Shown piece after piece: positions 711-28,898 of a DNA stretch of 64,000 bases. Position numbers and translations under genes: made by a program. The DNA is taken from contig JBBDYC010000009.1 of assembly GCA_040901985.1 (NCBI GenBank), forward strand, positions 124,364 to 188,363, read 5' to 3'. Source of the DNA: Gemmatimonadaceae bacterium. Its GTDB lineage: Bacteria; Gemmatimonadota; Gemmatimonadetes; Gemmatimonadales; Gemmatimonadaceae. The notes under the pieces were generated by a model, which did not search any database, was not told the DNA's origin, and saw only the letters and a program-made list of their open reading frames with translations. Positions within the stretch are counted from its first letter, which is position 1, and the number at the start of each line of letters is the position of its first letter.

Positions 711-749
711 CGACGGCGCGCGCAGTCTCGCGCGCACGGTCTCGCGCGC

Positions 750-875
750 GGTCGGTCGGAGCCGCGCCCGCCGCTTCGGGCCCTCGGCCTTACACGCTGC
801 GAACCCCCGCGAACTGCCGCGGGGTCTCTTGCTACGGCCGGGGGCCCTGCGCGTCGCGCACGGCCCCTTCCTCCC
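750..875 (-). repeat. Structured dispersed repeat, copy A (candidate ncRNA or REP-like ssDNA hairpin)
   Basis: Minus strand reads GGGCCC-C-CGGCC GTAGCAAGAGAC CCCGCG gcagtt CGCGGG GGTTCGCAGCGTGTAA GGCCG-A-GGGCCC GAA ... GACCGACC; core at 790-835. Confidence 0.9.
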
Positions 876-1032
876 TCGGGCGAGATCGTGGCGAGGCCGG
901 CTTGCCAGCTCAGCTTCGTGCGTCTGCCGCGGCGGCGGCGCGAGGGCGGCGGCAGAGGGCCGCGGCGGCGCGCGGGCGGCGGTAGCGCCGAGCCCGCGCC
1001 GACTGGGACTGGGACTGGGCAGGGGCGAGGGA

Positions 1033-1154
1033 GGGAGGGCGCGGGCGCGCGGCGCAGGGGCCTACGCCGTAGCAAGAGACCCCGCGGCAGTTCGCGGGGG
1101 CTCGCAGCGTGTAAGGCGTTGGCCCCGAAGCCGCGCGACCGTGCCCGACCGACC
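1033..1154 (+). repeat. Structured dispersed repeat, copy B
   Basis: Core GTAGCAAGAGAC...GCAGCGTGTAA at 1069-1114; 1046-1133 is identical over 88 nt to 28790-28877; ends in GACCGACC. Confidence 0.92.
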
Positions 1155-1196
1155 GCCCGCGCACGATCGCGCGCACACGCGCGCGCGCACACAGAA

Positions 1197-3830
1197 CTAA
1201 GCCGCCGTGCGGTCCCCGGCGATCCGGTCGAGATCCTCGAGCCCCACGAGCACGTCGCGCGGCTTGGATCCATCGGGCGGCCCCAGCACCCCAGCCAGGT
1301 GCAGTTGGTCAATGATCCGCGCCGCGCGCCCATACCCCACCTTCAGCCGCCGCTGCAGCAGCGACGTGGACCCACCCTGGTGCTGCACGCACACCTCCGC
1401 CGCCTCCCGGAAGAGCTTGTCGCGGTCGCCCTGGTCCTCGGCCGACTCCTCGCCGGCGCCCGCCTCGAGCGCCTCGCGCGCGCGGACCGTCTCGAGGATG
1501 TCCGCCTCGCTGGAGGCCTCCTCGACCGCCATCAGCCCGTCGGCCTCCAGCGCTGCCTTGCGCGCCGCCTTCCGGTCCGTGTACCAGCCCATCAGCCGCT
1601 CGGTGTCCTCGATGGCGAGGAACGCGCCCTGGAGCCGCGCCGGCTCGCTCTTCCCCGGTGGGATGAACAGCATATCGCCGTTCCCGAGCAGCGACTCGGC
1701 GCCCATTCCGTCAATGATCGTGCGCGAATCAATCTGCGACGCCACGCGGAAGGCGATCCGGCTCGGGAAGTTCGCCTTGATGAGGCCGGTGATGACGTTC
1801 ACGCTCGGCCGCTGCGTGGCGAGGATCAGGTGGATCCCGATTGCCCGCGCCTTCTGCGCCAGCATCGCCAGCGGCGTCTCCACCTCGGCGGCCACGGTCA
1901 TCATCAGGTCGGCGAGCTCGTCAATCACGACCACGATGTACGGCAGCACGCCCGCCTTGTACTCGCGGTCCTCGAACCCGACGTTCGGGTCCTTCGGCTT
2001 CCGCAGGGCGAGCCCCTCGCGGACCTTCGCGTTGAAGTCCTGGATGTTGCGCGCGCCATTCTCGGCGAGGAGCTCGTAGCGCCCCTGCATCTCCATCACC
2101 GCCCACTTGAGCACCGACGCCGCGTCGCGGTTGTCGGTGACGACCTTGTGGCGCAGGTGCGGCAGCACGTTGTACACGCTGAGCTCGACCATCTTCGGGT
2201 CCACCATCAGGAAGCGCAGCGTCTTGGGTGTGTGCCGGTAGATCAGCGAGGTGATGAGCGTGTTGACGCAGACCGACTTGCCGGAGCCGGTGGCGCCGGC
2301 GATCAGCAGGTGCGGCATCTTGGCGAGGTCGGCGATCACCGGCCGCCCCTCGAGGTCCTTGCCGAGTCCGATCGGGAGGGCCATCGGCCTGGACTGGTAG
2401 TCGCGGCTCTCGAGCATATCGCGGAAGGCGACGACGTCGGGGGTCGGGTTGGGCACCTCGATGCCGACGGCCCCCTTGCCGGGGATCGGCGCGACGACGC
2501 GGATGCTGGGCGCGCGCATCGCGAGCGCGAGGTCGTTGGCGAGGTTGGCGAACTGGCGCACCTTCACGCCGGGTCCGGGCTCGATCTCGAACTGCGTGAC
2601 CGTCGGCCCGGTGGTGCGGCCGGTGAGGGTGCCGTCCACCTTGAAGGTCTTGAGCGACTCAATGAGCTTGGCGCCCATCGCGTCGAGCTGGTTGCGGTCG
2701 GCGGCGGTGTCACGCACGGTGGCCGGGCTCAGGAGCTCGGGGGTGGGGAGCTCGTCCTCCGGGACGTGGGATGGGCGACGGGAGATGGGAGTCCCACTCA
2801 CCGCTTCCTTCCCTCCCCTCGCCTTCGACGTCCGGGTGCGCAGGTGCGTCGGGGCGAACGGCGACTCGACGGCCTCCAACTCGAGCTGCTCGGTCCTCAA
2901 CAGCGAGAGGGAGGTCAGCGGCTGGTGCTGCGACGCGTGGGCGCTCGCGTCCGCCGCTCCGCCCGCGCCGAGGCCCATCAGCGAGAGGTCCACTGGCGGC
3001 ATCTCGGCGGCGTCGGGTTCGAGGGCTTCGGCGGCGGTGAGGTGGCCGGCCGTCGTGGCGCCGGCGCCGTTGGCGTCAGCGCCCGTGGCGTCAGCGCCCG
3101 TGGCGTCAGCGCCCGTGGCGTCAGCGCCGGTGGCGCGGGCGCGGCCGACGGAGAGCAGCACGCGGACTGGATTCCAGCCCAGCGTCACCGCGGCCAGCGC
3201 GGAGAAGGCGATGGCGATGACGATCCAGGCGCCGGCGGCGCCGAGCAACTCGCGCACGTAGAACGCGGCAAAGGCCCCCCACAGGCCGGCGAGGATGTCG
3301 GGGGTGCCGGGCGCCAGGGTGTCGAGGCGCGCCAGTCCGGCGGCGACGGGGATGATGAGCGCGAGGCCGATCGTGAAGAAGAGGAACCGCTGGTCCTCGC
3401 TCTGCTCGAGCCGGCCGAGGAGGCGCAGTGCGTGGACGGCGGGGATGAGCGGCACGATGACGGCGGCGAGGGCGCCGACGAGGCCGAGGATGGACCAACG
3501 GACGCAGCCGCCGACCGGGCCAAAGGCGCCGCCGGCGGCGCTGCAGGCCTCGTTCAGTGCGGGCGCGCGGCCGAAGATCAGCGCGCCGGCGACGAACAGG
3601 GCGCCGAGGAGGAGCGCGATCCCCGAGACTTCGCGCACGACGTAGAGCCGGCGCGATTCGCTGGCGATATCGTCGGACTTCGCCGCAGCCGTCGTGGCCG
3701 GCGCGGCTGGCGCGGCTGGCGCGGCTGGCGCGGCTGTCGCGGCGTCTCGGCGCACGCGCGAGCGCCGCGGCTGCGGCGCGAGGGGGGAATCGGCGGGTGG
3801 AAGGTCGGCCGTGCTCGGCTTGCGGGCCAT
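1197..3830 (-). CDS. ftsK: DNA translocase FtsK
   Basis: N-terminal TM helices, PHLLIAGATGSGKS Walker A, VVVIDELADLMM, ATQRPSV, C-terminal gamma domain (STSLLQRRLKVGYGRAARIID). Confidence 0.97.
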   Translation of the reverse strand: MARKPSTADLPPADSPLAPQPRRSRVRRDAATAAPAAPAAPAAPATTAAAKSDDIASESRRLYVVREVSGIALLLGALFVAGALIFGRAPALNEACSAAGGAFGPVGGCVRWSILGLVGALAAVIVPLIPAVHALRLLGRLEQSEDQRFLFFTIGLALIIPVAAGLARLDTLAPGTPDILAGLWGAFAAFYVRELLGAAGAWIVIAIAFSALAAVTLGWNPVRVLLSVGRARATGADATGADATGADATGADANGAGATTAGHLTAAEALEPDAAEMPPVDLSLMGLGAGGAADASAHASQHQPLTSLSLLRTEQLELEAVESPFAPTHLRTRTSKARGGKEAVSGTPISRRPSHVPEDELPTPELLSPATVRDTAADRNQLDAMGAKLIESLKTFKVDGTLTGRTTGPTVTQFEIEPGPGVKVRQFANLANDLALAMRAPSIRVVAPIPGKGAVGIEVPNPTPDVVAFRDMLESRDYQSRPMALPIGLGKDLEGRPVIADLAKMPHLLIAGATGSGKSVCVNTLITSLIYRHTPKTLRFLMVDPKMVELSVYNVLPHLRHKVVTDNRDAASVLKWAVMEMQGRYELLAENGARNIQDFNAKVREGLALRKPKDPNVGFEDREYKAGVLPYIVVVIDELADLMMTVAAEVETPLAMLAQKARAIGIHLILATQRPSVNVITGLIKANFPSRIAFRVASQIDSRTIIDGMGAESLLGNGDMLFIPPGKSEPARLQGAFLAIEDTERLMGWYTDRKAARKAALEADGLMAVEEASSEADILETVRAREALEAGAGEESAEDQGDRDKLFREAAEVCVQHQGGSTSLLQRRLKVGYGRAARIIDQLHLAGVLGPPDGSKPRDVLVGLEDLDRIAGDRTAA

Positions 3831-3911
3831 ACGTCTCGGGGATTCAGGGGACGTATGGGAGACGATTCGGGTGGCTATCGGGATACGGGTTGACTACGGG
3901 TTCAAGATCCA

Positions 3912-4021
3912 AGGTGAAAGGGGCGCGCCGGGGACTGCCTGGCGCGCCCGTGTGAGGGAAAAGGAAAGGGGCGCCCCCACCGGGGCCCCCCCCCCCCCCC
4001 ACCCCTTTTCAACTTTCACCT
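3912..4021. repeat. Intergenic purine/pyrimidine inverted-arm element containing a 32-bp hairpin repeat and a C15 run
   Basis: AGGTGAAAG (3912-3920) and CTTTCACCT (4013-4021) are inverted arms; 3916-3947 is the exact reverse complement of 21466-21497; C15 at 3986-4000. Confidence 0.7.
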
Positions 4022-4027
4022 GTAGTC

Positions 4028-5071
4028 CTAGCGTCTCCCCAGCAACAGCCCGCCGCCAATGGTGAACGCCGAGACCTCTTGCTCCACCGCGAACACCTTG
4101 AAGCGTTCGATGCGGTAGCCGAGGTTCAGCGTGAGGGGAAAGCGGTTCCAGGTCCAGCTGAGCCCTGTCTCGCCGGACCAGCCCTCGAGTTCGTCTTTCG
4201 GCAGGGCGTCGTCGCCGAGCGGGATGCCGATGTAGTAGAGGGCGCGGAGCTGCACGGAGAAGTCGGTGTTGCCGACGTTCGCGCGCGTGCGAAAGCCGGC
4301 GCGGGCAAAGGTGTACGTCGAGTCGAAGTCGCCGCCGCCGCCGAACGTGAGGGAGTCGAAGCCGGTGCGCTGGGCAGCGCCAAGGTCGAGGGCGAAGCGG
4401 CGCGATCCCATCAGGAAGGCCACTTCCTGGTACGTGGGGGCATCATCGCCCCCCGCGATGCGGCGGGCGGCGAGGCCGAGGCCGCCACCGCGCGCGCGCT
4501 GCAGCGCGAGCTCAAGACTGCCGAGCCCGGTCTTGTTCTCCGGCTGGAGGGTTCCGCCGTCGGAGGTGCGGACGCTCGCGTTGTGGAGGTCGAACATCAT
4601 CATCAGGTAGACGGGCGAGCGTCGGCGCGTGGTTCCTGCCTCGGCGATGCGCACCGAGTCGCGCCGCACGGCGGCGGTGGCGGCGGCAATCGCGGCGGCG
4701 GTGGCCTGCGCAGGAGTGGTCGCGGCCGGCGGCGTGGCTGCCGGAGCGGCGGGACGTGCCGCAGCGGGCTGTCCGGCCGGCGGCGTGGCGGGCTGTCCGG
4801 CCGGTGGGGTGGCGGGCTGCCCCGCGGGCGGAGTGGCTGCGGGCGGGGTAGCCGGCTGTGCGGCGGGCTGACCCGCGGGCGGTGTGGTCGGCCGCGCGGC
4901 GGGCTGACCCGCGGGTGGCGTGGTCGGCCGCGCGGCGCCCGGCGCCGGCGTGGTCGTCGGCGCCGGCTTGGGGTCGGCCGGCTTGATCGCAAAGACGCTG
5001 CACCCGGCGAGCGGGAGGAGTGCAGCGAGGAGGAACGCGCGCGTCATTGAGGCCTCGTGAGTGGTCGTCAT
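4028..5071 (-). CDS. Hypothetical lipoprotein with Pro/Ala/Thr repeat linker and possible C-terminal beta-barrel-like domain (start may be ATG 5047)
   Basis: Lipobox LLPLAGC; TPPAGQPA repeats; amphipathic strand-like C-terminus (LSWTWNRFPLTLNLGYR). GAGG lies upstream of the ATG at 5047. Confidence 0.7.
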   Translation of the reverse strand: MTTTHEASMTRAFLLAALLPLAGCSVFAIKPADPKPAPTTTPAPGAARPTTPPAGQPAARPTTPPAGQPAAQPATPPAATPPAGQPATPPAGQPATPPAGQPAAARPAAPAATPPAATTPAQATAAAIAAATAAVRRDSVRIAEAGTTRRRSPVYLMMMFDLHNASVRTSDGGTLQPENKTGLGSLELALQRARGGGLGLAARRIAGGDDAPTYQEVAFLMGSRRFALDLGAAQRTGFDSLTFGGGGDFDSTYTFARAGFRTRANVGNTDFSVQLRALYYIGIPLGDDALPKDELEGWSGETGLSWTWNRFPLTLNLGYRIERFKVFAVEQEVSAFTIGGGLLLGRR

Positions 5072-5072
5072 C

Positions 5073-6164
5073 TCAGCGCGCCTGCGGCTGGATGCGCACG
5101 GTGACCTTGTACGCCGCTATCCGCTGCTTACTCTCGGCGTCGGCGTCGGTGAGCGCCTTCAGGTGCGCCGCCCGCAACGCCATATTGGCCCGCAGGTTCT
5201 CGACAGAGACGGTACCCTTGTCGAGCCAGAATCCGCCGACGGCGGCGCCGATCATCGCCACGCTGACGAGAATCGCGCGGCCGTCCGACTTGTACTCCGA
5301 GCGGATCGGCTCCTCGGCGCGGGCGACCGCGGCAATCGCGCCCGTCGCGGCGGCAAAGAATACGCTGGTCATCACCATCCGCACCCGCGGCGCCTTGGCC
5401 GACTCGGGCAGGAGCTTCGTGGTGTCGAGCACCGGCGTCGAGACCGGCGCAAGCGGCGTCGCCGCGGTGGCCGTCGCGTGATGCCGTACGGTCACCGAGT
5501 CGCCGGTGACGGCGTCCACCGCCGTCACCACAAACTCGTATTCCCCCGAGACGAACAGCGGCGTGCGGCCATCGTGGCCGCGGAAGCCGAGCTGGCCGCG
5601 CGAGTCAGGGGTCACGGTGGAGTCGTGGAGGACGCTCGCGCCAGTCGGAAGCGGGGCGACGCGCAACCGGAAGCGCACCGGCCGCGACGCGATCACGCTG
5701 ATGAACGCCCGGCCGTCGGTCCCGACGAGCGAATCCTGCGCCGCCGGGCGGACGGCCACGGCGAGCGTGCGGCTGCGCGCCACCTCGTAGAGGGAATCGA
5801 GGCCCGACCACCGCAGCTCCACGGGGAGCGTGGCATCGGGCGCGAGCCGGATGATCGCACTCAGGTGCGCGAGCGCGGAGTCGGACCGCTGCTCGGCCAG
5901 TTCCTCGGGGTAGAAGGCGGCCGCCATCGTGGCCCGGAGCGCGATCACCTGCGCCGGTCGCATGTTGGGCGCGAACGCAAAGACCTCGTGGCCGCGCCGG
6001 ATCGCGTCGGCGTAGCGGAGGTCGTTCACGTCCGCGCGCACGCGGGCGATGAGGTCGTCGGTCGGCGATGTGCCCTGCGCGGCCGCACCGTCGGAGGCGG
6101 CGGCGAGCGCGAGGACAACGCCGAGGAGGGCGGCGCCGAGGCGTCGCGATTTCCGGAGGGACAT
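5073..6164 (-). CDS. Hypothetical exported protein
   Basis: Signal peptide MSLRKSRRLGAALLGVVLALAAASDGAAAQ; helical N-terminal part; two C-terminal hydrophobic segments; abuts the next gene. Confidence 0.7.
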   Translation of the reverse strand: MSLRKSRRLGAALLGVVLALAAASDGAAAQGTSPTDDLIARVRADVNDLRYADAIRRGHEVFAFAPNMRPAQVIALRATMAAAFYPEELAEQRSDSALAHLSAIIRLAPDATLPVELRWSGLDSLYEVARSRTLAVAVRPAAQDSLVGTDGRAFISVIASRPVRFRLRVAPLPTGASVLHDSTVTPDSRGQLGFRGHDGRTPLFVSGEYEFVVTAVDAVTGDSVTVRHHATATAATPLAPVSTPVLDTTKLLPESAKAPRVRMVMTSVFFAAATGAIAAVARAEEPIRSEYKSDGRAILVSVAMIGAAVGGFWLDKGTVSVENLRANMALRAAHLKALTDADAESKQRIAAYKVTVRIQPQAR

Positions 6165-6221
6165 GGAAACTCTCAGGCCGGGGGAATCAGCAAGCGGAGA
6201 AATGAACGCCTGGGACGCCGT

Positions 6222-7976
6222 TCAGCAACTGACAGGGCGGAACCCGATCGTGTGCGTCTGACCGGCCGCCACCACGAAGGTCGTATCCCATCGTGCGCAG
6301 TTCTCGGCGCGCACGGAGATCGTGACGGAGCCCGCCGGGAAGGTCAGGGTCTGGACGCCGCGCTCACCGATCGGACGGACCTCCTGGCCGATGTAGAGCA
6401 CCGCGCCGGGGATCCGGCTGCCGATGCGGATGGTGCCGGGCCCTGCGGGCGCCGGGGGCTCCGCCGGGGGCGGGGTCGGCGGCGGCGCGGCGGTCCGCGT
6501 GGTCTCGGCCGGCGCGGGCTGCGGCCGTGCGGCCTCCCGTGCGGGCTCCCGTGCGGGCTGCTCCTGGACGGGCTCGGGCGCCGGCTGCGGCCGCGCGGCC
6601 GCATCGCCCGGCGGAGTCGCGGCCGCCCGCGCGCGCGCGGCGGCCTCGGCGGCCGCCGCCACCCGGGCAATCGAGTCCTCCCGGGCCAGCGAGTCGGTGC
6701 GGACCGAATCGGCAAACGCGAGGGCGGCGCGCTGGAAGTTGGCAATCGAGTCGCGGATCGCCGCGCTGTCCACCGGCGGCGGCGTGGCGACCAGATTCTC
6801 GACCGGGGCCGCCTCGCGCCCGAGGACGCCGTCCAACAGGCCACCGAAGAGCTCCGGCCGTAGGTACGCAGTGGCGGCCGTCACGCCGATGGCCAGCGTG
6901 AGCAAGCCGACGATGAGGCGCCCGCGCGACGGACGCGTCGTCTCTTCCTCCTCCTCGTCTTCCTTCGCCACCTTGGGCCGGGGGCGCTTCGGCGGGGTCC
7001 GCTTGGCGGGGCGCTGCGCCGGAATCGGACTCACCGGGACGCTCATCCGCGGCTGCTGCTGTGCGCCCAGCTTGGCGAGCGTGATGATCTGCGTCCGGAC
7101 CTCCGCCTCGACCGTGGGCGGCGCCGCGCCGAACGCGGCCACCGCCTCCTCGAGCGTGGGGAAGCGATCGGCCGGATCCTTCGCCATCATCCGTCGGAGG
7201 CACGCCTCGAGTGCCGGCGGCACGTCAGGCCGGTCCAGGCTGACCGACGGCACCTCGTCGAAGAGGTGGCCCCGCATCACCTCGACGATCGTGTCGCCGG
7301 TGTAGGGCTGCTTGCCGGTGAGCATCTCGTAGGCGACGATGCCGAGGGCGTACTGGTCGGCGGCGCCGGTGACCTGCTTCCCGTTGAACTGCTCGGGGCT
7401 CATATAGTACGGCGTGCCGATGATGGACCCCGTCATTGTGAGGCCCTTCATATCCTCGAGCTTGGCGATGCCGAAGTCGGTGACGATGAGCCAGCCGTCC
7501 TGGTCGAGCATAAAGTTCGCCGGCTTCACGTCGCGGTGGACGACGCCGCGCGAGTGGGCGTAGTGCAGCGCCTTGCCGGCCGCGCTGATGAGCGTCTGGA
7601 CGAACGGCACCGACTGCTGGCCGCCCTCGCGGATCACCGAGTCGAGGGCGCGCCCCTCGATGTACTTCATCACGAAGTAGGCGAGGTCGGGGTCGTCGCC
7701 GACCGCGTAGATGCCGATGATGTTGGGATGATTGAGCGAGGCGGAGACCCTGGCCTCGCGCTTGAAGCGCGCGATGTTGTCGGCCGAGTTCATCATCGCC
7801 GGCGACATCACCTTGATGGCGACCTTGCGGTCGAGCGCGAGGTCGAGGGCCAGGAAGACCGAGGCCATGCCGCCCGTGCCGAGCTCGGCATACACGTCGT
7901 ACCGGCCAATCGTCGCGCGACGGAGTCGCTCGATTAGCGGTTCGGTACCGGCGGCGGTGTAAGTCTCGTTGGCCAG
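6222..7976 (-). CDS. Hanks-type Ser/Thr protein kinase with TM helix and C-terminal PEGA-like domain (start uncertain, CTG 7976 proposed)
   Basis: LGTGGMASV, VAIK, HRDVKPAN, DFG, GTPYYMSPEQ motifs; TM LIVGLLTLAIGVTAATAYL. The ORF-track extension to 8867 runs through a non-coding repeat. Confidence 0.9.
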   Translation of the reverse strand: MANETYTAAGTEPLIERLRRATIGRYDVYAELGTGGMASVFLALDLALDRKVAIKVMSPAMMNSADNIARFKREARVSASLNHPNIIGIYAVGDDPDLAYFVMKYIEGRALDSVIREGGQQSVPFVQTLISAAGKALHYAHSRGVVHRDVKPANFMLDQDGWLIVTDFGIAKLEDMKGLTMTGSIIGTPYYMSPEQFNGKQVTGAADQYALGIVAYEMLTGKQPYTGDTIVEVMRGHLFDEVPSVSLDRPDVPPALEACLRRMMAKDPADRFPTLEEAVAAFGAAPPTVEAEVRTQIITLAKLGAQQQPRMSVPVSPIPAQRPAKRTPPKRPRPKVAKEDEEEEETTRPSRGRLIVGLLTLAIGVTAATAYLRPELFGGLLDGVLGREAAPVENLVATPPPVDSAAIRDSIANFQRAALAFADSVRTDSLAREDSIARVAAAAEAAARARAAATPPGDAAARPQPAPEPVQEQPAREPAREAARPQPAPAETTRTAAPPPTPPPAEPPAPAGPGTIRIGSRIPGAVLYIGQEVRPIGERGVQTLTFPAGSVTISVRAENCARWDTTFVVAAGQTHTIGFRPVSC

Positions 7977-8007
7977 AGGACTTCCGTGTGGGGGCGGGTC
8001 TCGTAAG

Positions 8008-8036
8008 AATGTCCGGCTTTTTGGCCGGGCGGTCAA
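8008..8036 (-). promoter_or_regulatory. Possible sigma70-type promoter for the kinase operon
   Basis: TTGACC-N17-GACATT on the minus strand, about 30 nt upstream of the proposed CTG start; the -10 match is weak. Confidence 0.3.
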
Positions 8037-8330
8037 GTGCGTTGTGTCACCTTCTGACTGCTTATTCCCGGCTTTTTTCCGCAGGTCGGGAGGCGCCGGA
8101 CGCCCTCCCGGGCTCTCGCGCGGATGCTGACAGTCGCGCTGCCGCTCGCTCCGTGACCGCTCCCGGGCCGCCGCCGAACCCTCTTTCGGGGCTGGGTAAG
8201 CTAAAACCGCACATTGCCGGCGAGGCGCACAACGGAGAGCGAGGGGACAGGCTGGCCGGGCCGAGACGGAGCGGACGCCGCGGCCCGCGAACCCGTGCAG
8301 CCCGCGCCGGACCGTGCGCGCGGACAGGGC

Positions 8331-8479
8331 CCTTGGGAGGGCAGCGACGTGCGCCCGGCGAAGGGGCCTACGCCGTAGCAAGAGACCGCGCGGCGGTTCG
8401 CGCGGGCTCGCAGCGTGTAAGGCGTTGGCCCCCGGAGCCAGGCGCTCGCCGCTGCCCGACCGACGCAAAGATCCCAAGG
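8331..8479 (+). repeat. Structured dispersed repeat, copy C (solo)
   Basis: Core at 8375-8420 with apical stem CGCGCG/CGCGCG in place of CCCGCG/CGCGGG; outer stems GGGCAGCG/CGCTGCCC and CCTTGGGA/TCCCAAGG. Confidence 0.9.
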
Positions 8480-8518
8480 CACCCGGCGATCGAGCAGCGA
8501 ACAGCGGGCAGCGAGCGT

Positions 8519-9871
<1,353 letters not shown>

Positions 9872-11561: not shown

Positions 11562-11602
11562 CAAACAGCAGGTGGGAGGTGGTGAGGCGGGAGGCGGGCG
11601 AT

Positions 11603-14039: not shown

Positions 14040-14046
14040 GAGTACA

Positions 14047-14118: not shown

Positions 14119-14124
14119 GCAGTC

Positions 14125-14595: not shown

Positions 14596-14612
14596 GATTG
14601 TCTGGGGTTCGG

Positions 14613-15947: not shown

Positions 15948-15949
15948 GG

Positions 15950-16666: not shown

Positions 16667-16672
16667 GTCAGG

Positions 16673-16678
16673 AAGATA
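16673..16678 (-). promoter_or_regulatory. Leaderless-type -10 box (TATCTT) 6 nt upstream of the ZIP GTG start
   Basis: TATCTT-CCTGAC-GTG; no SD sequence; same geometry at 39955-39960 and 49249-49254. Confidence 0.5.
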
Positions 16679-16714
16679 GACGAACCGGGAACCCCCGGTT
16701 CCCGGGCGCGTCGC

Positions 16715-19422: not shown

Positions 19423-19471
19423 CCGGCTCGGCTCTGGGAAGTGAGAAGGGACCAGCGCCCCGACTTGGGAG

Positions 19472-19550
19472 AAAATACCACGCCGGGAGAGTGCAGGTCA
19501 ATCAGAAGTGTGCGTGTCGCTTGATTTTAGGTCGTGTCGCCGGGTAGGTT
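19472..19550. promoter_or_regulatory. Divergent sigma70-like promoters between the TPR gene and the ppiD-like gene
   Basis: Minus strand: TTGACC(19501-19496)-N18-TATTTT(19477-19472) with TG extension. Plus strand: TTGATT(19521-19526)-N18-TAGGTT(19545-19550). AT-rich island. Confidence 0.45.
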
Positions 19551-19603
19551 TCGAGGTTCTTTCCCACGTCATTCTCCTACCGTTCGCGCCAGGGTTGTCC
19601 GCC

Positions 19604-21433
19604 GTGCTCCAAGAGATGCGAGTCGTTGCCAAGTACGTCTGGATCTTCCTCTTCATCGCGTTCGTCGGAAGCTTCCTCTTCGCCGATATGTCCGGCCTGA
19701 TCGGCCAGGCGCCGGTCACGACCTCCACTGTCGTGGCCAAGGTGAACGGCGATGAGATTCCCTACCTAGCGTGGGAAAACCTCACCCGCTCGCTTGCCCA
19801 GCAGCAGGAACAGCAGACCGGGCGCTCGCTGAACCTCGACGAGCGCCTCCAGCTCGAGCAGCAGGCGTTCGACCAGCTGGTGACCGACCTGCTCCTCCAA
19901 CAGGAATACGAGAGGCGGGGGATCATCGTCACCAACGACGAGATCGTGGCCGCCGCGCGGTACTCCCCCCCCCCCCAGTTCCAACAGGCGGCCGAGTTCC
20001 AGACGGAAGGCCGGTTCGACCAGGCCAAGTACGAGCGGTATCTGGCGTCGCCCCTCGCGCGCCAACAGGGCCTGCTGGCGCAGTTGGAGAGCTACTACCG
20101 GGCCGAGCTGCCGCGGAGCAAGCTCTTCTCGCAGTTGATTGCCGACACCTGGCTGAGCGACGAGCAGCTGTTCCAGGTCTTCCGGGACGAGCGGGACTCG
20201 GCGCGCGTGTCGTACGTGGCGCTGCGCCCGACGCCGGCGCAGGTCGCGGCGGTCACGGTGAGCGAGGCGGAGGTGAAGCGCTACTACGATCGCTACAAGG
20301 GACGCTGGGAGCGGAGCGGGCGGGCGGTGGTCTCGTTCGTCAGCATCAGCCGGATCCCGGTCGCGGCCGACACGGCGGCGGTGGTCGCGCGGCTTCGCGA
20401 GCTGCGCGCCGAGATCGTCGGCGGCGCGAGCTTCGCCGACGTGGCGCGCCGCGAGTCCGAGGATTCCGTCTCGGCGCGCGAGGGCGGCGATCTCGGCCGC
20501 GGGACGCGCGGCCGGTTCGTGCCCGCGTTCGAGAATGCCGCGTTTGCCCTTCGCGTGGGACAGGTCTCCGAGCCGGTAGAGACCCAGTTTGGGTGGCACC
20601 TGATCCAGGCGACCGATCGCAAGGGCGACACGCTCGCGGTGCGGCACATCCTGCTGCGCGTCCGCCAGGGCGATTCCACCGCGACGCTCTCGGACCGCGC
20701 GGCGGACCGGCTGGCCGGGATCGCGGCCGGCGCGAGCGACCCCCGCAAGTTCGACGAAGCCGCCGAGGCACTCGGGCTGCTCGTCACGCAGATCCCGGTG
20801 ACCGAGGGGCAGACGGCCACGTATCAGGGCCTCCCCGTCGGCGGCGTCAGCGGATGGGCGTTCTCCGGCGTGCAGCCGGGCGAGACGAGCGACCTCTTTG
20901 ACGACGAGCAGGCCTACTATCTCGTCCGGCTCGACTCGCTGACGCGGGGCGGCGAGCAGCCCCTCGCGCTGGTGCGCGACGACATCGCGCAGGCGCTGCG
21001 CGAACGGAAGGCCGTGGACGTCCTGGTGCCACAGGGCGAAGCGCTCCTCGCCGACGCGCGGAACTCGACGCTCGAGGCGATGGCGGCCAAGGCCGGGCTC
21101 ACGGTGGACACGACGCGCACGTTCACCCGGCTGAGCTTCGTGGAGGGACTCGGCTATTCGAACGAGGCGGTCGGCGCGGCGTTCGGCCTCGACGTCGGCA
21201 CCACCGCGATGGTGCGCACGATTGATGCCGTCTTCCTGATGCGGGTGAACCACCGGGTCGGGGCATCGCGCGAGGCCTTCGAGGCGCAGAAGGCCACCCA
21301 GCGCCAGCAACTCGGCAACGCGGCGCGCGAACAGCGCATCCGCACGTTCCTCGACAACCTCCGCCGCGAGGCGACGATCGTGGACCGCCGCCGCGACATC
21401 AACGCAGCGCTGCGGAGACAGGTAGTCGAATAA
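19604..21433 (+). CDS. PpiD-like periplasmic chaperone / parvulin PPIase with SurA N-terminal domain
   Basis: N-terminal anchor, VAKVNGDEI, parvulin motifs SFADVARRESED..GGDLG, FVPAFENAAF, VSEPVETQFGWHLI. Confidence 0.88.
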   Translation: MLQEMRVVAKYVWIFLFIAFVGSFLFADMSGLIGQAPVTTSTVVAKVNGDEIPYLAWENLTRSLAQQQEQQTGRSLNLDERLQLEQQAFDQLVTDLLLQQEYERRGIIVTNDEIVAAARYSPPPQFQQAAEFQTEGRFDQAKYERYLASPLARQQGLLAQLESYYRAELPRSKLFSQLIADTWLSDEQLFQVFRDERDSARVSYVALRPTPAQVAAVTVSEAEVKRYYDRYKGRWERSGRAVVSFVSISRIPVAADTAAVVARLRELRAEIVGGASFADVARRESEDSVSAREGGDLGRGTRGRFVPAFENAAFALRVGQVSEPVETQFGWHLIQATDRKGDTLAVRHILLRVRQGDSTATLSDRAADRLAGIAAGASDPRKFDEAAEALGLLVTQIPVTEGQTATYQGLPVGGVSGWAFSGVQPGETSDLFDDEQAYYLVRLDSLTRGGEQPLALVRDDIAQALRERKAVDVLVPQGEALLADARNSTLEAMAAKAGLTVDTTRTFTRLSFVEGLGYSNEAVGAAFGLDVGTTAMVRTIDAVFLMRVNHRVGASREAFEAQKATQRQQLGNAAREQRIRTFLDNLRREATIVDRRRDINAALRRQVVE

Positions 21434-21437
21434 CTAA

Positions 21438-21518
21438 AGGTGAGAGGTGGAAGGTCACCGCACCTGCGCGCCAGGCAGTCCCCGGCGCGCCCCTTTCCCC
21501 TTTCTCCTTTCGCCTTTT
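21438..21518. repeat. Heptamer arms flanking a GC hairpin between convergent genes; possible terminator
   Basis: AGGTGAG AGGTGGA AGGTCAC ... GCGCGCCAGGCAGTCCCCGGCGCGC ... CCCTTTC CCCTTTC TCCTTTC GCCTTTT; 21466-21497 is the reverse complement of 3916-3947. Confidence 0.75.
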
Positions 21519-21765
21519 AAATCAGCCTCTTCGGCTCCGTCCCCTCGGCATCCTTCTGCGGTGCCCCCTGGCGCTCCTGGGCGGGCGGCAGACTCCCCTG
21601 CTCCGCCGGCGTCGAGATCTCGCGCTGCACCTCGTTCATATTCTTCTTGAACTCCTTGATTCCCTTGCCGAACGAGCCGGCGATCTCGGGAATGCGCTTC
21701 GCGCCGAAGAGCAGGAGAACGACTACAAGACCGATGAAGAGTTCGGTCGGGCCGAGTCCGAACAT
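21517..21765 (-). CDS. tatA: Twin-arginine translocase TatA/E subunit
   Basis: MFGLGPTELF...LLFGAKRIPEIAGSFGKGIKEFKK; GGAGG RBS. Confidence 0.95.
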   Translation of the reverse strand: MFGLGPTELFIGLVVVLLLFGAKRIPEIAGSFGKGIKEFKKNMNEVQREISTPAEQGSLPPAQERQGAPQKDAEGTEPKRLI

Positions 21766-21776
21766 ACGAACCTCCG

Positions 21777-22058
21777 TTAGAACAGCGAACGCGCGATGAG
21801 ATAGGCGGCGAGGACCCCGACAAGGCTCAGCAGCGAGACGTCGAGCGCGATGGGTCCCAATCCAAACTTGATGATGACCAGATCCACCGACAAGGGGCCG
21901 ACCGACGGCGTCACCCCGGTGGTGAGGAATTCCTTGACCGCGCCCGACGGCAGGAAGAGCCGGGCAAACTGCGTGAGGAAGCCGCCGACCACGAACCCGA
22001 TGGCCAGCACGATGGCGTGATACCCCGGGCGATGCTTCGCCGAGCCCTGGAGCGCCAT
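21777..22058 (-). CDS. Small membrane protein (DUF4321-like)
   Basis: MALQGSAKHRPGYHAIVLAIGFVVGG...; start overlaps the upstream stop (TGATG). Family assignment is from recall only. Confidence 0.7.
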   Translation of the reverse strand: MALQGSAKHRPGYHAIVLAIGFVVGGFLTQFARLFLPSGAVKEFLTTGVTPSVGPLSVDLVIIKFGLGPIALDVSLLSLVGVLAAYLIARSLF

Positions 22059-23062
22059 CAGGCCCGTCGGTCCATCACGTAGGCCAGCGCGTCCACCAGC
22101 GACTGCCGCACCTCCGACTCCGGCACGCCGTCCAAGGCCTCCTCCGCGAGCTGGGCGAATTTCTCCCCGGTCCGGCGTGCGTAGTCGAGCCCGCCGCACT
22201 CCGCCACGATGCCGACGACCTCGGCGATCGTCGCGTCACCCGGCGTCGGATCGGCGAAGAGGGCATCCACCCGCGCCCGCTGGGCGCGCGACATCTGCCC
22301 GAGCGCCGCGATCAGCGGGAGCGTGACCTTGTGCTCGCGCAGGTCGGTGCCGCCCGGCTTCCCGGTCACCGCCTCCTGCTCGATGTAGTCGAGCAGGTCG
22401 TCGGCGACCTGGAACGCCATCCCGAGCTGCTCCCCGAAGCGTCGGAGCTGGGCGCGGTAGCGCGGCGCGCCGGCCAACGCGCCCATCTCGCACGCCGCGC
22501 CGACCAGCGAGGCCGTCTTGGCCCGGATCAGCGTGTAGTAGTCCGCCTCGGTGAAGGTCAGCGCATCGTACGACGCCAGTTGGCGGAGCTCGCCGAGCGT
22601 CATCTCGTTCGACGCCTGCGTGAAGACCCGCAGCGGCTCGAGGTCACCGAGCCGCACCAGCTCGGCGATGGCCTTGGAGAACAGGAAGTCGCCCATCAGC
22701 ACGGCCACCTGATGACTGAAGATTGCGTTGAGCGTCGGCTGGCCGCGGCGGAGGACCGAGTGGTCCACCGAGTCGTCGTGGACAACGCTCGTCAGGTGCA
22801 CGAGCTCGGCGACCGCCGCCAGCGGGATGGCACGCTCCTCCGGCGTCCCCTCGACCTCCGACGCGAGGAGGAGGAGTGTCGGCCGGAAGAGCTTGCCGCG
22901 CATCCCGCGCAGGTGCGCGTTGGCCGCCTCGACAATCGCGACGTCGGCCTCGACGATCCGCCAGAGCTCCTCCGGCACGCGGTCGAGCCGGGCCCGCACC
23001 GGGAGCTGGATCTCGAGCAGCGCCGGGGCGACCGGCAGGCGCGTCTGCGCGTCGGGCGTCAC
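22058..23062 (-). CDS. Polyprenyl diphosphate synthase
   Basis: GKLFRP, HDDSVD..RRG (FARM), AFQVADDLLD (SARM), GKPGGTDLRE. Confidence 0.93.
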   Translation of the reverse strand: MTPDAQTRLPVAPALLEIQLPVRARLDRVPEELWRIVEADVAIVEAANAHLRGMRGKLFRPTLLLLASEVEGTPEERAIPLAAVAELVHLTSVVHDDSVDHSVLRRGQPTLNAIFSHQVAVLMGDFLFSKAIAELVRLGDLEPLRVFTQASNEMTLGELRQLASYDALTFTEADYYTLIRAKTASLVGAACEMGALAGAPRYRAQLRRFGEQLGMAFQVADDLLDYIEQEAVTGKPGGTDLREHKVTLPLIAALGQMSRAQRARVDALFADPTPGDATIAEVVGIVAECGGLDYARRTGEKFAQLAEEALDGVPESEVRQSLVDALAYVMDRRA

Positions 23063-25380
23063 GTGAGATTCCGCTCGACCGCGCTGAGCCGGTCGCCGAC
23101 GTCGCGGAACTGGATGTCCACCGAGAAGACGCGCTCGTAGAACTTCTTGGCCTCCGGATACGCCTTGGTCTCCTCGGAGATGGCGCCGAGCAGGTAGAGC
23201 ACGCCGACGAGCTCCTCGTCGCGGACGTTCGGCTCGGAGAGCGCGCGCTGGAGAATCGTCGCCGCCACCGGAAGCTGCTGCTTCTCGATGAAGCAGTGGC
23301 CCAGCGCCTCGAACGAGCGCACGCGCGCATTGGGCGCGCGGAGCGCCTTCTGGAACTCGGCGATCGCCTCGTCGAGCAATCCCATCTCCTTGTAGGCGAC
23401 GCCGAGGTCGTAGTGGGCCTCGTGATCCTCGTCGTCCACGTTGTCGGAAACGCCCTGCTTGAACATCCGGAGCATATCGGCGAAGTCCGCCTGCTCGTCG
23501 CCGGTGGGCTCCTTCTCCTCGACGACCATCCGCGTGCTCTTCGGCTCGTCGTCCTCGCGCAGCCAGTCGCCGAGCGACACAAATTCGTCGTCGCTGTCAC
23601 CCTTGGGCTTGGCGGCCTTCTTCGGCATCGGGGCGGGCTTGGCGGGCGCCGCGGTGGTGCTGCGCCGCGGCGGCGGCGGGGCCTCGACGGCAACCTCCTC
23701 CGGGATGGACTCGATGGCCGCCTGGGCGCGCAGGTCGTCCGGCGTGATGTCGAGGACCCGCTGGTAGACCACGCGCGCCTTCTGCGCCTGGCCGTCGGCG
23801 AGCAGCGCGTCAGCGAGTTCGAGGTACGCCTCGGCGAGGAGCCCGCGGTCGTTGGCGCGGAAGGCGAACTCGACCCGCTTCTGGTGGAAGCGGATGGACT
23901 TGGGCTCAAGCCGGACGATCTCCTCGGCGATGGATCCGGCGGTGTCGAGGTCGCCGCCGGTCTCATAGCCGGTCATCGCCTGCTCGAGTTGCGCCACGCC
24001 TTCAGCCCGGTCGCCGCCCTCCAGCAGCGCCTCGGCGAACTGCCGCCGCAGGCCCCAGTCCTCCGGCGAGGCGTCCACGCGCTCCCGCAGGGCGTCCACC
24101 GAGGTCGCCAGTTCCGTGGAGGCCTCGGGCATCTCGAGCACCGGCGCCTCGACCACCGGCTCCTCGAACGGGCTGTCGCCCAGCGGCGAGTCGGTGTCGA
24201 AAACGATCAGATCGTCGGACAGCGATGGCTCCGGCTCGACTTGGAGGGCGTCGCCGCCGAGCGTCGGCTCCGGCTCGATCAGCGATTCCACGGTCCCGAT
24301 CTCCGCCGGCGCGTCGAGGTCCATCACCTCGAGGTCGGGCGCCGATCGCGGCACGGTCGGCGGCTCCTCGCTCTCCACCGGCTCCACCGGAGCGTCGGCG
24401 TCGGCGTCGGCGGGCGGTGCGACCTCGTCGGAGAAGCTGGTGGCCTGGAGTCCTGCCAACGATCCGCGCGGCGGTGGCGGTGCCTCGTCGGCGACCTGCG
24501 TGGGTTCGATGAGGATTGGCTCGGCGGGCGGCGCAGGGGGTGTGGCGGGAGCGGCGGGCTCGGCGGGGGCGGCGGCCGCCGGCTTGGCCGGAGCAGGCGG
24601 AGCGAGCGGCTCAAGCAGCGAGAGTCCCTCGACCGCCTTGGTGAGACGCTTGGTCTCCAGCGGCGACGGCATCCGCACGGACTTGCGGCCGGCCGGCGTG
24701 TCCACGTCGAGGAAGACCAGCCCCGCGCCCCCGGACGAGGACGCCGCACCGTCGGCCTTCGGCTCGATGGACGGGTCAATCTCCTTGAGCTTTGCGGCGA
24801 AGCTGTCGGCATCGCTTGCATCGCCGTCGGCCGACGCCTGCGCGTAGCCCACCTGGAGCTGGGCGATTGACTCGTCCTTCTTCCCCGCCTTGAGGAGTTG
24901 ATCGGCCAGCATCAACCGGACGTCGTACTGGTCCGGCACGAGGTCGGCGAACTCCTTCAGGGTCCGGAAGGCCTCGTCCATATTGCCGGCCTGCTGCTGG
25001 CGACTCGCGTACTCGAGGAAGTTCTGGCGCGCGTCGGCCTTGAAGCCCTTCTCGGCGCTGATCTTCCCGAGCTTGTAGTAGATCACGGTGCGGCCGGGCG
25101 AGGCGCGCAGGATCTTGTTGCAGAGCGCGATGGCCGGGTTGTAGAACCCGCCCTCGGTGTAGTGATCCACCGCCTTCTCCCAGACCGACACGGCGTCCGG
25201 GAGTTTCCCCGCCTTCTGCAGCATATCGCCGACGCGATTGTAGAACGGGATGTCTACCGGATCCTCTTCGCCCCCCTCGTACGCGTCAATGATCTGGCGA
25301 TAGACGTCGAGGGCCTTGTCCACCTGCTTCTTGGCCTCGAGGTCGGCCGCTTTCTTCTTCAGCTTGACGATGTCGGCCAT
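23059..25380 (-). CDS. Large TPR protein with acidic central linker
   Basis: Starts MADIVKLKKKAAD; N-terminal TPR array; C-terminal TPRs (HYDLGVAYKEMGLLDEAIAEFQKA). Confidence 0.85.
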   Translation of the reverse strand: MADIVKLKKKAADLEAKKQVDKALDVYRQIIDAYEGGEEDPVDIPFYNRVGDMLQKAGKLPDAVSVWEKAVDHYTEGGFYNPAIALCNKILRASPGRTVIYYKLGKISAEKGFKADARQNFLEYASRQQQAGNMDEAFRTLKEFADLVPDQYDVRLMLADQLLKAGKKDESIAQLQVGYAQASADGDASDADSFAAKLKEIDPSIEPKADGAASSSGGAGLVFLDVDTPAGRKSVRMPSPLETKRLTKAVEGLSLLEPLAPPAPAKPAAAAPAEPAAPATPPAPPAEPILIEPTQVADEAPPPPRGSLAGLQATSFSDEVAPPADADADAPVEPVESEEPPTVPRSAPDLEVMDLDAPAEIGTVESLIEPEPTLGGDALQVEPEPSLSDDLIVFDTDSPLGDSPFEEPVVEAPVLEMPEASTELATSVDALRERVDASPEDWGLRRQFAEALLEGGDRAEGVAQLEQAMTGYETGGDLDTAGSIAEEIVRLEPKSIRFHQKRVEFAFRANDRGLLAEAYLELADALLADGQAQKARVVYQRVLDITPDDLRAQAAIESIPEEVAVEAPPPPRRSTTAAPAKPAPMPKKAAKPKGDSDDEFVSLGDWLREDDEPKSTRMVVEEKEPTGDEQADFADMLRMFKQGVSDNVDDEDHEAHYDLGVAYKEMGLLDEAIAEFQKALRAPNARVRSFEALGHCFIEKQQLPVAATILQRALSEPNVRDEELVGVLYLLGAISEETKAYPEAKKFYERVFSVDIQFRDVGDRLSAVERNLT

Positions 25381-25487
25381 TCGGGGAGGCGGTCGGCGAG
25401 AAACAGGGCGGGCATCAGTAGAGCGCCGGAGGCGCAACGACCCGAAAGGTACGCCCCGAACCACTGGCGTGACAAGCGTTTGGGTCG

Positions 25488-26744
25488 CTACTCCGTGTGT
25501 GCCGGCCGGCCGCCGACCCAACTGCCCACGCAGCGTCGGTCGCCGTACCAGTACGGGATCTCCCGATGGTCACCCACCGCGAAGAGCGCCAGGTCGCCCT
25601 GAAATCCTGGCGAGAGCTGGCCAAGCTCGGCGGCCATCCCGAGCGCCGCCGCACCATTCACCGTCGCCGCCACGAACGCCTCGGCGACGCTCAGCCGGAG
25701 CTGGCTCACGCCGAGCGTGAGGACCAGCGGGAAGTTCACGGTCGGGCTTGTCCCCGGATTGAAGTCGGAGGCGAGGGCCACGGCGCAGCCGGCCTCGACC
25801 AGCGCCCGCGCCGGGGCCTGGGTGGACCGCCCGAGGAACAGCATCGTCCCGGGGAGGAGCGTGGCCACGGTCCCCGCCTTCGCGAGGGCGGCGATCCCGG
25901 CGGCGGAGACCGCCGCGAGATGGTCGGCGGAGGTCGCGCCAAGTTCGGCGGCGAGCTCGGCCGCCGCGCCGTTCGCGAGTTCGTCGGCGTGCAGCTTGAG
26001 GGAGAGCCCGTGCGAGCGCGCCGCGGTCAGCACCTGCCGCGACTCCTCGACGCTGTAGACGCCGGGCTCGCAGAAGACGTCGCAGAAGCGCGCCAGTCCC
26101 TCGCGCGCCACGGCCGGCAGCATCTCGTGGACGACGAGCGCCAGGTAGTCGGCCCGCGTGCGCGGCGCCTCGCGGTACTCGAGCGGGACCTCGTGCGCGC
26201 CGAGGAACGTCGGGACGAGCCGCACCGGCAGCTCGGCGGCGAGGCGGCGCACCACGCGCAGGGTGCGGAGCTCGGCGTCGAGCGAGAGGCCGTAGCCCGA
26301 CTTCACCTCGATCGTCGTGGTGCCGTGCGCGGCAAGCCGGCGGAGCCGCGCGCCGGCGAGCGCCGCGAGGTCGTCCTCCGGGCGCGTCCGCAGGTCGCGC
26401 ACCGAGGCGTGGATCCCGCCGCCACGCCGGGCGATCTCCAGATACCCGACGCCGGCGGCGCGGAGCTCCTGCTCCTCGTGGCGCGGCCGCCCGAAGATCG
26501 CGTGCGTGTGCGAGTCCACGAAGCCCGGTGTCAGCACGCCGCGCGCGCAATCCACGAGCGTCGCCGCGGGATGCGCCGCGCGGAGCTCGGCATCCGGCGC
26601 GACGGCGAGCACGCGGCCATCGGCCCCGACCGCCACGCCGACCCCGTCGCGCACGCCGGCGTCGGCCATCTCGGCGCCGCGACGCGCGCGCCCCGGGCCC
26701 GCGCACGTCACCACCTGCGCGGCGTTCACGAAGAGCGTCGTCAC
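25488..26744 (-). CDS. hutI: Imidazolonepropionase
   Basis: [47 protein letters not shown]. Confidence 0.96.
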
Positions 26745-28417
26745 GCGCCGTCCGGGCGCGGGCCGCCCATCGGGATGCGGATGCCGGTCCGCCGCGCGGT
26801 CTCCTGCGCCGACGGGTATCCCGCATCGGCGTGCCGCGCCACGCCGATCCCCGGATCGTTCGTCAGCACGCGCTCGAGCCGCTCGCGCATCTCCGGCGTC
26901 CCGTCGGCGACGATCACCTGTCCCGCGTGGAGCGAGTTGCCGATCCCCACCCCGCCGCCGTGGTGAAAGCTCACCCAGCTCGCGCCGCTCGCCACGTTGA
27001 GCAGCGCGTTGAGGATCGCCCAGTCAGCCACCGCGTCGGTGCCGTCCTTCATCCCCTCCGTCTCGCGGAAGGGTGAGGCCACGCTGCCGGTGTCGAGGTG
27101 GTCGCGCCCGATGACGATCGGTGCCGAGATCTCCCCCGAGGCGACGAGGTCGTTGAGCGCCACGCCGAAGCGGGCGCGTTCGCCCTGGCCGAGCCAGCAG
27201 ATGCGCGCCGGCAAGCCCTGGAACCGGATTCGCTCGCGTGCCATCGTGATCCACCGCTTGAGGTGCGCGTCGTCCGGAAACATCTCCAGCACCAGGTCGT
27301 CGGTGCGTGCGATGTCGGCCGGGTCGCCCGAGAGCGCGGCCCAGCGGAACGGGCCCTTGCCCTCGCAGAACAGTGGCCGCACGTACTCGGGGACGAACCC
27401 GGGAATCCGGAAGGCGTCGGTGACGCCGGCGTCGAGGGCGACGGTGCGGATGTTGTTGCCGTAGTCGAAGGCGACCGCGCCGGCGTCCTGCATCGCGCGC
27501 ATCGCGCGGACGTGAGCGACGACGCTCGCCGTCGAGCGGCGCAGGTACTCCGCGGAATCGCTGCCGCGCAGCGCCGTCGCGGCGGCGAGCGACATCGCGT
27601 GCGGGACGTAGCCGTGCAGCATATCGTGCGCCGAGGTCTGGTCGGTCACGACGTCGGGGATCAGGCCGCGCTCGACCATCGTCGGGAGGACCTCCGCCGC
27701 ATTGCCGACGAGCCCGACCGAGAGTCCGCGCCTCGCTGCCTGCGCCTCGCGGATCCAGCGCATCGCCTCGTCGAGGTCGGCCGTCATCCGGTCGCAGTAG
27801 CCGCCCTGCAGGCGCTTCTCGATGCGCGACGGATCCACCTCGACGCAAAGGATCGCGGCGTCGTTCATCGTCGCCGCCAACGGCTGCGCGCCGCCCATCC
27901 CGCCGAGTCCGGCGGTGAGGACGAAGCGGCCGGCGAGGGTGCCGCCGAAGTGCCGGCGCGCGACCGCGCCGAACGTCTCGAACGTCCCCTGCACGATTCC
28001 CTGCGACCCGATGTAGATCCACGACCCGGCGGTCATCTGCCCGTACATCATCAGGCCCCGCCGCTCGAGCTCGCGGAAATGCTCCCAGGTGGCGAAGCGG
28101 CCCACAAGGTTGGAGTTGGCGATCAGGACGCGGGGCGAATGGCGGTGGGTGCGGAAGACGGCGACCGGCTTGCCGCTCTGGACGAGGAGCGTCTCGTCGT
28201 CGGCGAGGTCGCGCAGCGTCGCGACGATCGCGTCGAACGACTCCCAGTTGCGCGCCGCCTTGCCGGTCCCGCCATAGACGACGAGGTCCTCGGGCCGCTC
28301 CGCGACCTCGGGGTCGAGATTGTTCATCAGCATCCGCAGGGCGGCCTCCTGCGGCCAGCCCTTGCAGCTGATCGCCGTGCCGCGCGGGGCGCGCACGACT
28401 CGCGTCTGGTTCGTCAT
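26741..28417 (-). CDS. hutU: Urocanate hydratase
   Basis: [43 protein letters not shown]. Confidence 0.98.
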
Positions 28418-28443
28418 CGCTGGCCGCGGCTCCTCTCAGGCAT

Positions 28444-28460
28444 CGCGCTAATCTAGCGCG
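28444..28460. promoter_or_regulatory. 7-3-7 palindrome overlapping a putative -10 box (TAGATT, minus strand) upstream of hutU
   Basis: CGCGCTA-ATC-TAGCGCG; TAGATT at 28455-28450; GAGGAG lies between it and the hutU ATG. Confidence 0.4.
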
Positions 28461-28509
28461 TCGGCGGGCCCTGTTCTGCTCGCCTGCTGTCTGGCTGGGA
28501 TTCGTGCGC

Positions 28510-28634
28510 GGTCGGGGGGCGGGGGCATTCCCTTCGCGAGCCTCACGCGCTTAGACGCTGCGAGCCGCCGCAACGGCGCGGCGTCTCTTGCTACGCGCGA
28601 CGGCTCGCTGTGGGAACGCCCCCGCCCCCCTCCC
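28510..28634 (-). repeat. Structured dispersed repeat, copy D (most divergent)
   Basis: Minus strand: GGGGGGCGGGGGCGTTCCC ACA GCGAGCC GT CGCGC GTAGCAAGAGAC GCCGC gccgtt GCGGC GGCTCGCAGCGTCTAA GCGCG TGA GGCTCGC GAA GGGAATGCCCCCGCCCCCC GACC. Confidence 0.88.
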
Positions 28635-28768
28635 CAGCCGGCCTCGCACGTGAGGGGCGGCGGCGAGGCGCGGCCCGGCCGCGCGCGAGCGCACGCGACG
28701 CCCACGCCGAGGGCGAGCCAGAGTGAGCGATCCGGATCGCGCCCGCGCGAGCCGACCTGCACTGAAGA

Positions 28769-28898
28769 CCTTGGGAGGGCGGGAGCGGCCGCGCGGCGCA
28801 GGGGCCTACGCCGTAGCAAGAGACCCCGCGGCAGTTCGCGGGGGCTCGCAGCGTGTAAGGCGTTGGCCCCGAAGCCGTGTGGCCGCTCCCGACCGACC
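28769..28898 (+). repeat. Structured dispersed repeat, copy E
   Basis: Core at 28813-28858; 88 nt identical to copy B; outer stem GGGAGCGGCCGCGCGGC/GCCGTGTGGCCGCTCCC; ends in GACCGACC. Confidence 0.92.

Follow-up and report, generated by a model that had tools for sequence, protein, structure and literature searches.

GTAG-tagged REP (repetitive extragenic palindromic), BIME and REPIN elements are described as hairpins of 20–40 nt that go together with RAYT (TnpA-REP; PMC3733652, PMC8266576, PMC6006769). In Escherichia coli group 2 REPs, an imperfect hairpin containing an AA/GC mismatch comes after GTAG (PMC8266576). NTS/SRM repeats go with Ssn GIY-YIG nucleases, which act on single-stranded DNA (ssDNA; PMC11893778). 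Here we describe a repeat from a Gemmatimonadaceae genome, present in five copies (A to E) in a window of 64,000 nucleotides (the whole stretch of DNA analyzed; contig JBBDYC010000009.1, positions 124,364 to 188,363). The five copies are members of a real, non-coding repeat family of ~140 bases. The strand that carries GTAG forms a rod of ~140 nt with tandem G·A pairs, GNA/GNA loops and a bulged conserved core below a free apical loop. Rods form divergent doublets around a free spacer, and an orthologous intergenic site may either carry them or lack them. We consider it likely that they are a lineage-specific, non-autonomous, REP/BIME-like repeat that acts as folded ssDNA with a partner protein encoded elsewhere.

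Rods and REP/BIME elements are both intergenic, strand-specific imperfect hairpins with opposed doublets, local clusters and presence/absence among relatives; both have GTAG in the core, and the AA/GC mismatch there is similar except for its spacing from GTAG. The rods differ in length (~140 vs 20–40 nt), in their long outer arms with G·A tandems and in their exchangeable cores; moreover, the members of a rod doublet are unlike each other, the copy number is low and no Y1 gene is linked. GTAG is located ~45 nt inside the rod between paired flanks instead of forming a 5' foot, and sister cores do not contain it. By these tests the rods do not group with GTAG-REPs, given the GTAG position, the sister cores and the absence of a linked Y1 gene. 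NTS/SRM repeats are similar in being dispersed ssDNA hairpins with a free loop and candidate substrates of a small site-specific enzyme, but they have another sequence, and the GIY-YIG genes of the five rod carriers examined are long frames only, with no rod nearby. The rods resemble integron attC sites in folding on one strand, in conserved unpaired bases and a variable terminal loop, in lying often antisense at a gene 3' end, and in toxin-antitoxin-like cargo between copies; they differ in having no attC core boxes.

Anatomy of the rod and the folding strand

From the apex downwards, a rod starts with a free loop, 3 to ~40 nt long and in some copies joined by a third arm; a variable stem then leads to the conserved core. 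The core combines an A·G mismatch with a loop, either AA/GCA or GA/GAA, and a bulge of three bases. Below the core lie a five-pair stem, a fixed non-pair, a further stem, a GNA/GNA loop, a long stem and tandem GA/GA pairs. The rod ends are self-complementary and not conserved in sequence. AA is found opposite GCA in 126/194 copies and GA opposite GAA in 37/194, with a spacing from GTAG unlike that of the E. coli REP, and the non-pair at position 6 is present in 157/194. Part of the core's invariance follows from the way most copies were detected, by their core; the model search also recovered altered cores. Rods with sister cores have the outer rod in common with the main type, and only the inner GAGAC/GGCTC part of the core is kept. 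One sister core was observed in 6/14 genomes of one genus and in 0/387 other genomes searched; it is found in divergent doublets both with its own kind and with main-core rods, and here too GNA triloops occur. A small extra hairpin is present as a third arm within the rod or at the apex at L230, L276, L307, L314 and L435 (L numbers denote loci with copies, G000 the source genome of the window, other G numbers relative genomes).

In an alignment of 140 copies fitted to the structure by a covariance model, 99.1% of 1811 cells are paired, and 346 two-sided changes compare with 105 in shuffles (0/500 had as many) and with 5 one-sided changes. For the five pairs beside the core, an anchored count without the model gave 938/970 Watson-Crick pairs and 4 G·T. 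The copies' own arms pair better than crossed arms, 85% being above the 95th percentile. The initial annotation had taken covarying stems as a sign of selection. The covariation is indeed strong, but it is weaker evidence than was assumed, since template switching can create it: stems can be created and repaired in a single step, according to PMC8794818. Among close copies we counted 14 two-sided vs 6 one-sided changes, and flipped loops were observed. The far arm of rods between rplL and rpoB is an inverted copy of the last 15–25 nt of rplL at nine loci (L047, L070, L098, L113, L118, L231, L240, L276, L289); otherwise arm extension beyond 40 nt is weak, 7–16% above control. Template switching fits these data because two-sided changes come without wobble intermediates, loops are flipped and the rplL copy is inverted, and the covariation is best read as partly reflecting it. 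The firmer sign of selection lies in the features that resist arm copying: the core, the position-6 non-pair and the retained G·A mismatches.

The GTAG strand folds better than its complement in 78/80 copies with DNA parameters and in 71/80 with RNA parameters (one of the 80 is a mis-parsed match). Its arm mismatches (n = 1672) comprise 789 G·A vs 121 T·C, and it is from this imbalance that the strand asymmetry arises. GA/GA accounts for 137/276 of the 2×2 loops and GNA/GNA for 71/116 of the 3×3 loops. The commonest apical loop is a C-GNA-G triloop (45/194), and GNRA, UUCG or CUUG tetraloops were found in 4/194; related copies are not independent, so that these loop counts share descent. GCGNAGC is an extra-stable DNA mini-hairpin with far less stable RNA counterparts (PMC13037366). 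We favor DNA over RNA as the folded molecule because C-GNA-G triloops are common, RNA-type tetraloops are rare, G·T pairs are almost absent beside the core and there is no match in Rfam.

In the window, RNA folds of the GTAG strand have z-scores from −4.5 to −8.2 for all five copies, with 0/200 shuffles as good. The RNA fold of the opposite strand is weaker in four of the five, the exception being copy C; DNA parameters favor the GTAG strand in 5/5. Selection on a single-stranded structure of this strand, as deduced in the initial annotation, is supported by the strand preference, the two-sided stem changes and the retained G·A mismatches. The count of about 7 vs 2 G·T wobbles that had been cited for it was not reproduced: DNA folds give 14 vs 7, and the main strand asymmetry resides in the G·A mismatches.

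Placement, distribution and turnover of the copies

The features of the window are as follows.

740–885, minus strand: rod A, left member of divergent doublet A/B (core 790–835)
1023–1164, plus strand: rod B, right member of doublet A/B, facing the ftsK stop (core 1069–1114)
8331–8479, plus strand: rod C, single copy facing the accC stop (core 8375–8420)
28504–28640, minus strand: rod D, left member of doublet D/E, upstream of hutU (core 28551–28594)
28769–28899, plus strand: rod E, right member of doublet D/E, facing the hutH stop (core 28813–28858)
886–1022, no strand: spacer of doublet A/B, homologous to that of a near-identical doublet 2.7 kb upstream and beyond the window (G000:C9:122.4–122.8 kb), but further diverged than it
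28645–28758, no strand: spacer of doublet D/E, without a sigma-70-like promoter or terminator match
1–710, plus strand: last part of an accessory block of three genes without a Pfam family (417, 176 and 108 aa), between two near-identical doublets; block not at this place in G041

Coordinates, strands, core and stems of the five copies agree with the initial annotation, although the rods reach slightly past the ends given there, and the divergent arrangement of A/B and D/E had gone unremarked. All five are intergenic, as had been stated: A/B are flanked by the 108-aa gene, which ends at 710, and by the ftsK stop (1197). Copy C has the accC stop (8519) on one side and, on the other, a Ser/Thr kinase gene with a family match starting near 7910; D/E are flanked by hutU and the hutH stop (28953). 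Neither doublet gave a promoter or terminator match. At 1003–1022 of the window, at G000:C9:122.78–122.85 kb and at L004 and L104, rod ends carry short tandem repeats, the rod 3' tail being among the sequences repeated.

The assembly of G000 (2.64 Mb, 19 contigs, 99.97% complete) contains eight copies. Seven are whole and located within 31 kb of contig C9 (122.4–153.2 kb), forming three divergent doublets and one single rod; the eighth is split across the ends of C13 and C8. A covariance model matched 14/150 genomes of the family, in 10/60 genera. In a sample of the phylum it matched 3/30 genomes of the window's family vs 0/119 other Gemmatimonadota genomes, with 22 candidates scored per genome, so that weak copies can escape. 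Carrier genomes have 1–16 copies, and 5–16 were found in five genomes searched more deeply. The exact core pattern gave 89 matching stretches in a species-level genome collection; among the 80 listed, 77 are named Gemmatimonadota and one is labelled Actinomycetota. With at least 124 further stretches from a metagenome scan, at least 304 distinct copies with the main core were collected in all. The main core had 0 matches in viral contigs and the rods none on plasmids; three matches of the sister core in viral contigs are all inside reading frames, and a phage or plasmid origin was therefore ruled out. Confinement to one chromosome region was ruled out as well, as the neighbors of the copies map to 95 genes on 17/19 G000 contigs, the recA-ftsK-accC-hut bin being the fullest with 11.

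The initial annotation recognized no known family, and we reached the same result: no covariance model of Rfam 15 matched at the gathering score, and at E up to 10 only sub-threshold miRNA/CRISPR noise lay over the rods. We found no description in the literature on Gemmatimonad REPs or structured non-coding RNA motifs, where supplements may list such repeats and most subscription papers were outside the search. The family is probably undescribed so far.

Neighboring rods less than 700 nt apart (n = 64) comprise 61 divergent, 2 convergent and 1 tandem pair. Their core-to-core gaps range from 21 to 647 nt, and the spacers are not conserved. For 23 copies from other genomes, at 17 distinct places, both flanks map next to each other in G000; the G000 site is empty in 23/23, and in 22 its spacer is the shorter one. 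Other places are shared among genomes, namely the accC end, hutU, ftsK-yraN and rplL-rpoB; G041 has a copy at the accC 3' end too (L207), and G018 a doublet upstream of hutU (L206). Toward a gene's 3' end face 85/120 rods, which may reflect promoter avoidance. Single rods between co-directional genes are sense in 11 and antisense in 13 cases. The initial annotation had argued against a riboswitch from placement on both strands; a riboswitch or terminator was rejected given the absent sense bias and the missing terminator match.

A direct repeat of doublet A/B lies 2.7 kb upstream in G000, the two enclosing three Pfam-less genes missing at this place in G041. Between the duplicated doublets the rods differ by few bases and the spacer by many. 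The contigs of four DNA runs break at the repeats of duplicated doublets and provided no usable joint. Elsewhere, near-identical rods on the same strand bracket a block of HTH and nucleotidyltransferase genes (L234) or a single gene (L284), and divergent rods enclose DUF4160/DUF2442 (L081) or an HTH gene (L426). These arrangements suggest cargo capture by rods. Fused or rearranged doublets with deleted or swapped inner arms were observed at L238:2166–2275, L206:16805–16950, L253 and L017:1499–1652. Several rods were also observed beside DNA repair or recombination genes (dnaE2/imuB-like, radC, yraN-recA, rmuC, ligD, HhH-GPD) at L060, L075, L082, L087, L048 and L178, a placement that may or may not exceed chance.

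Candidate partner enzymes

The initial annotation had proposed the rods as substrates of an HUH/RAYT-type transposase. This proposal is not supported. A custom hidden Markov model for Y1 found no gene in G000 and none beside rods, and a motif scan of the 2277 called G000 genes (the proteome as a whole was not run against Pfam) yielded no HUH candidate. Y1 genes are present in 20/87 genomes of the family and in 5/16 carriers, with a rod at 0/57 Y1 loci. No RAYT/IS200-type tnpA or reverse transcriptase gene flanked by copies was found either; frames that recur in the vicinity of rods belong to housekeeping genes. The assemblies of many carriers are incomplete. A rod-flanked gene, if present in every carrier, should have surfaced, because there are 5–16 copies per genome and ~300 copies were seen.

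Other enzyme classes were considered in turn. GIY-YIG genes occur at 10 loci in 5/5 carriers, all as long frames of 416–783 aa with no rod nearby and no small single-domain gene among them, which speaks against a link to Ssn. IS91 was rejected, as Y2 was found only as two C-terminal fragments in G000, in 0/4 other carriers and never beside rods; the fragments are located at G000:C1:31842–32000 and C9:112953–113063, one of them 9 kb from the rod cluster with no adjoining rod. IS110 was rejected with one weak partial match in five carriers, not linked to rods. An Xer/dif likeness of the 3' core was discarded, as 429 loci contain no XerD-like half and the dif-like site of the genome is unlike the core. 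The dif-like site, judged by the dif consensus, is at G000:C6:42856. IntI is present in 0/5 carriers (G097, G018, G249, G356, G044) vs 5/5 non-carriers (G016, G007, G055, G045, G042), in a small sample of incomplete assemblies with kinship uncontrolled and with G000 itself as an exception (IntI by motif). An integron/attC origin was rejected given the missing attC core boxes, IntI in 0/5 other carriers and the attC-like sites of G000 forming a separate family. G000 has two such sites (C9:317895 and 319332) and two integron-integrase-like genes near contig starts (C3:2282–3304 and C17:1022–1783).

Proposed mode of action and alternatives

Based on the architecture of the rods and their turnover we propose the following sequence of events. 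The lagging-strand template is one example of transiently single-stranded DNA on which the rod would fold. The rod core would be recognized by a nuclease or strand-transferase that binds ssDNA site-specifically and nicks nearby; this enzyme would act in trans or have been lost since. A divergent doublet would present one folded rod per strand, 3' of the spacer, so that both strands could be handled; this in turn may let copies spread locally and turn the sites into hot spots where small gene blocks are gained and lost. The stems would be rewritten in complementary steps by template switching from arm to arm, and selection would retain the G·A mismatches and the core, so that folding stays strand-specific and a long perfect palindrome is avoided.

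Several observations weigh against this REP/BIME-like reading. No transposase, integrase or reverse transcriptase family was found in 134 neighbor clusters (simple codon model, cut to 400 aa), and none of the 61 divergent doublets has a gap above 647 nt. The relatives with empty sites are too diverged to show where an insertion ends or whether a target is duplicated; as regards a MITE, with its terminal inverted repeats and target-site duplication, the rods offer ends that are self-complementary but vary in sequence. Some sites are old and shared (rplL-rpoB, 9 loci), where a host function fits as well as mobility. Rods also bracket core genes (radC, hutU), and for this reason cargo capture is suggested and not shown. 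The outer arms on the GTAG strand hold 432 G·T pairs vs 254 A·C. Moreover, G·A tandems and GNA/GNA loops occur in RNA too.

One alternative is a multicopy structured RNA (a small RNA, a ribozyme-like motif or an mRNA 3'-end stabilizer) with a protein-binding or catalytic internal loop. Strong covariation, invariant loops, the G·T excess in the outer arms, the 85/120 rods toward gene 3' ends and the long retention at rplL-rpoB would all suit it. We nevertheless regard it as unlikely, given that Rfam returned just noise, DNA-type triloops dominate, one-sided changes number only 5 in 1811 cells, neither window doublet has a promoter or terminator match, spacers are unconserved down to 21 nt core-to-core and a sense bias is absent. 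The initial annotation had left the choice between an ssDNA mobile repeat and a non-coding RNA or ribozyme; the former branch fits the data better, the latter less well. A derived GTAG-class REP family, with a RAYT lost from most carriers or acting from an unlinked locus, would account for the REP-like doublets, intergenic placement and local clustering. Its GTAG and AA/GC mismatch recall the E. coli group 2 REPs (PMC8266576), and the family does hold Y1 genes (20/87 genomes). This too is quite improbable in our judgment: GTAG is located inside the rod rather than at an unpaired 5' foot and is missing from sister cores, 11/16 carriers show no Y1 gene, rods are found at 0/57 Y1 loci, and 5–16 copies per genome are few for REPs.

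We give very little weight to single-strand initiation or replication-restart signals (ssi/pas-like), in which opposed hairpins load a primase or restart protein on either strand. The opposed pairs, one per strand, and the mini-hairpins at phage and plasmid priming sites (PMC13037366) agree with this model, but rods are absent from 136/150 relatives searched, none were found on plasmids or phages, and their positions vary freely. Equally remote are neutral quasi-palindromes kept complementary by template switching alone. The mechanism is described (PMC8794818), and the two-sided changes without wobble intermediates (14 vs 6 one-sided in close copies), the flipped loops and the inverted rplL 3' end on the far arm at 9 loci are what it would produce. 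Arm copying would erase mismatches, yet the G·A pairs, the position-6 non-pair (157/194) and the core persist on one strand, by which this model is largely refuted; in addition, 61/64 neighboring pairs are divergent, and rods diverge less than the spacer between duplicated doublets.

Going beyond the REP/BIME-like reading, an undescribed enzyme that processes ssDNA, distinct from Y1/RAYT, Ssn, IS91, IS110 and IntI, might use the rods with their several interchangeable cores as sites for recombination or nicking, which would allow integron-independent capture and shedding of small gene blocks in Gemmatimonadaceae. We put this forward as a tentative idea that is rather doubtful at present. If it were true, the mutual exclusion with IntI in the small sample would be meaningful. 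Known REP-like repeats are explained by RAYT or Ssn, whereas the rod family has a protein-binding signature but no such enzyme was found. Its invariant bulged core, strand-specific G·A architecture and strict doublet polarity make it a bait for a new ssDNA enzyme or host factor. For RNA motif discovery the family is also a caution, since rods pass covariation tests yet resemble folded DNA.

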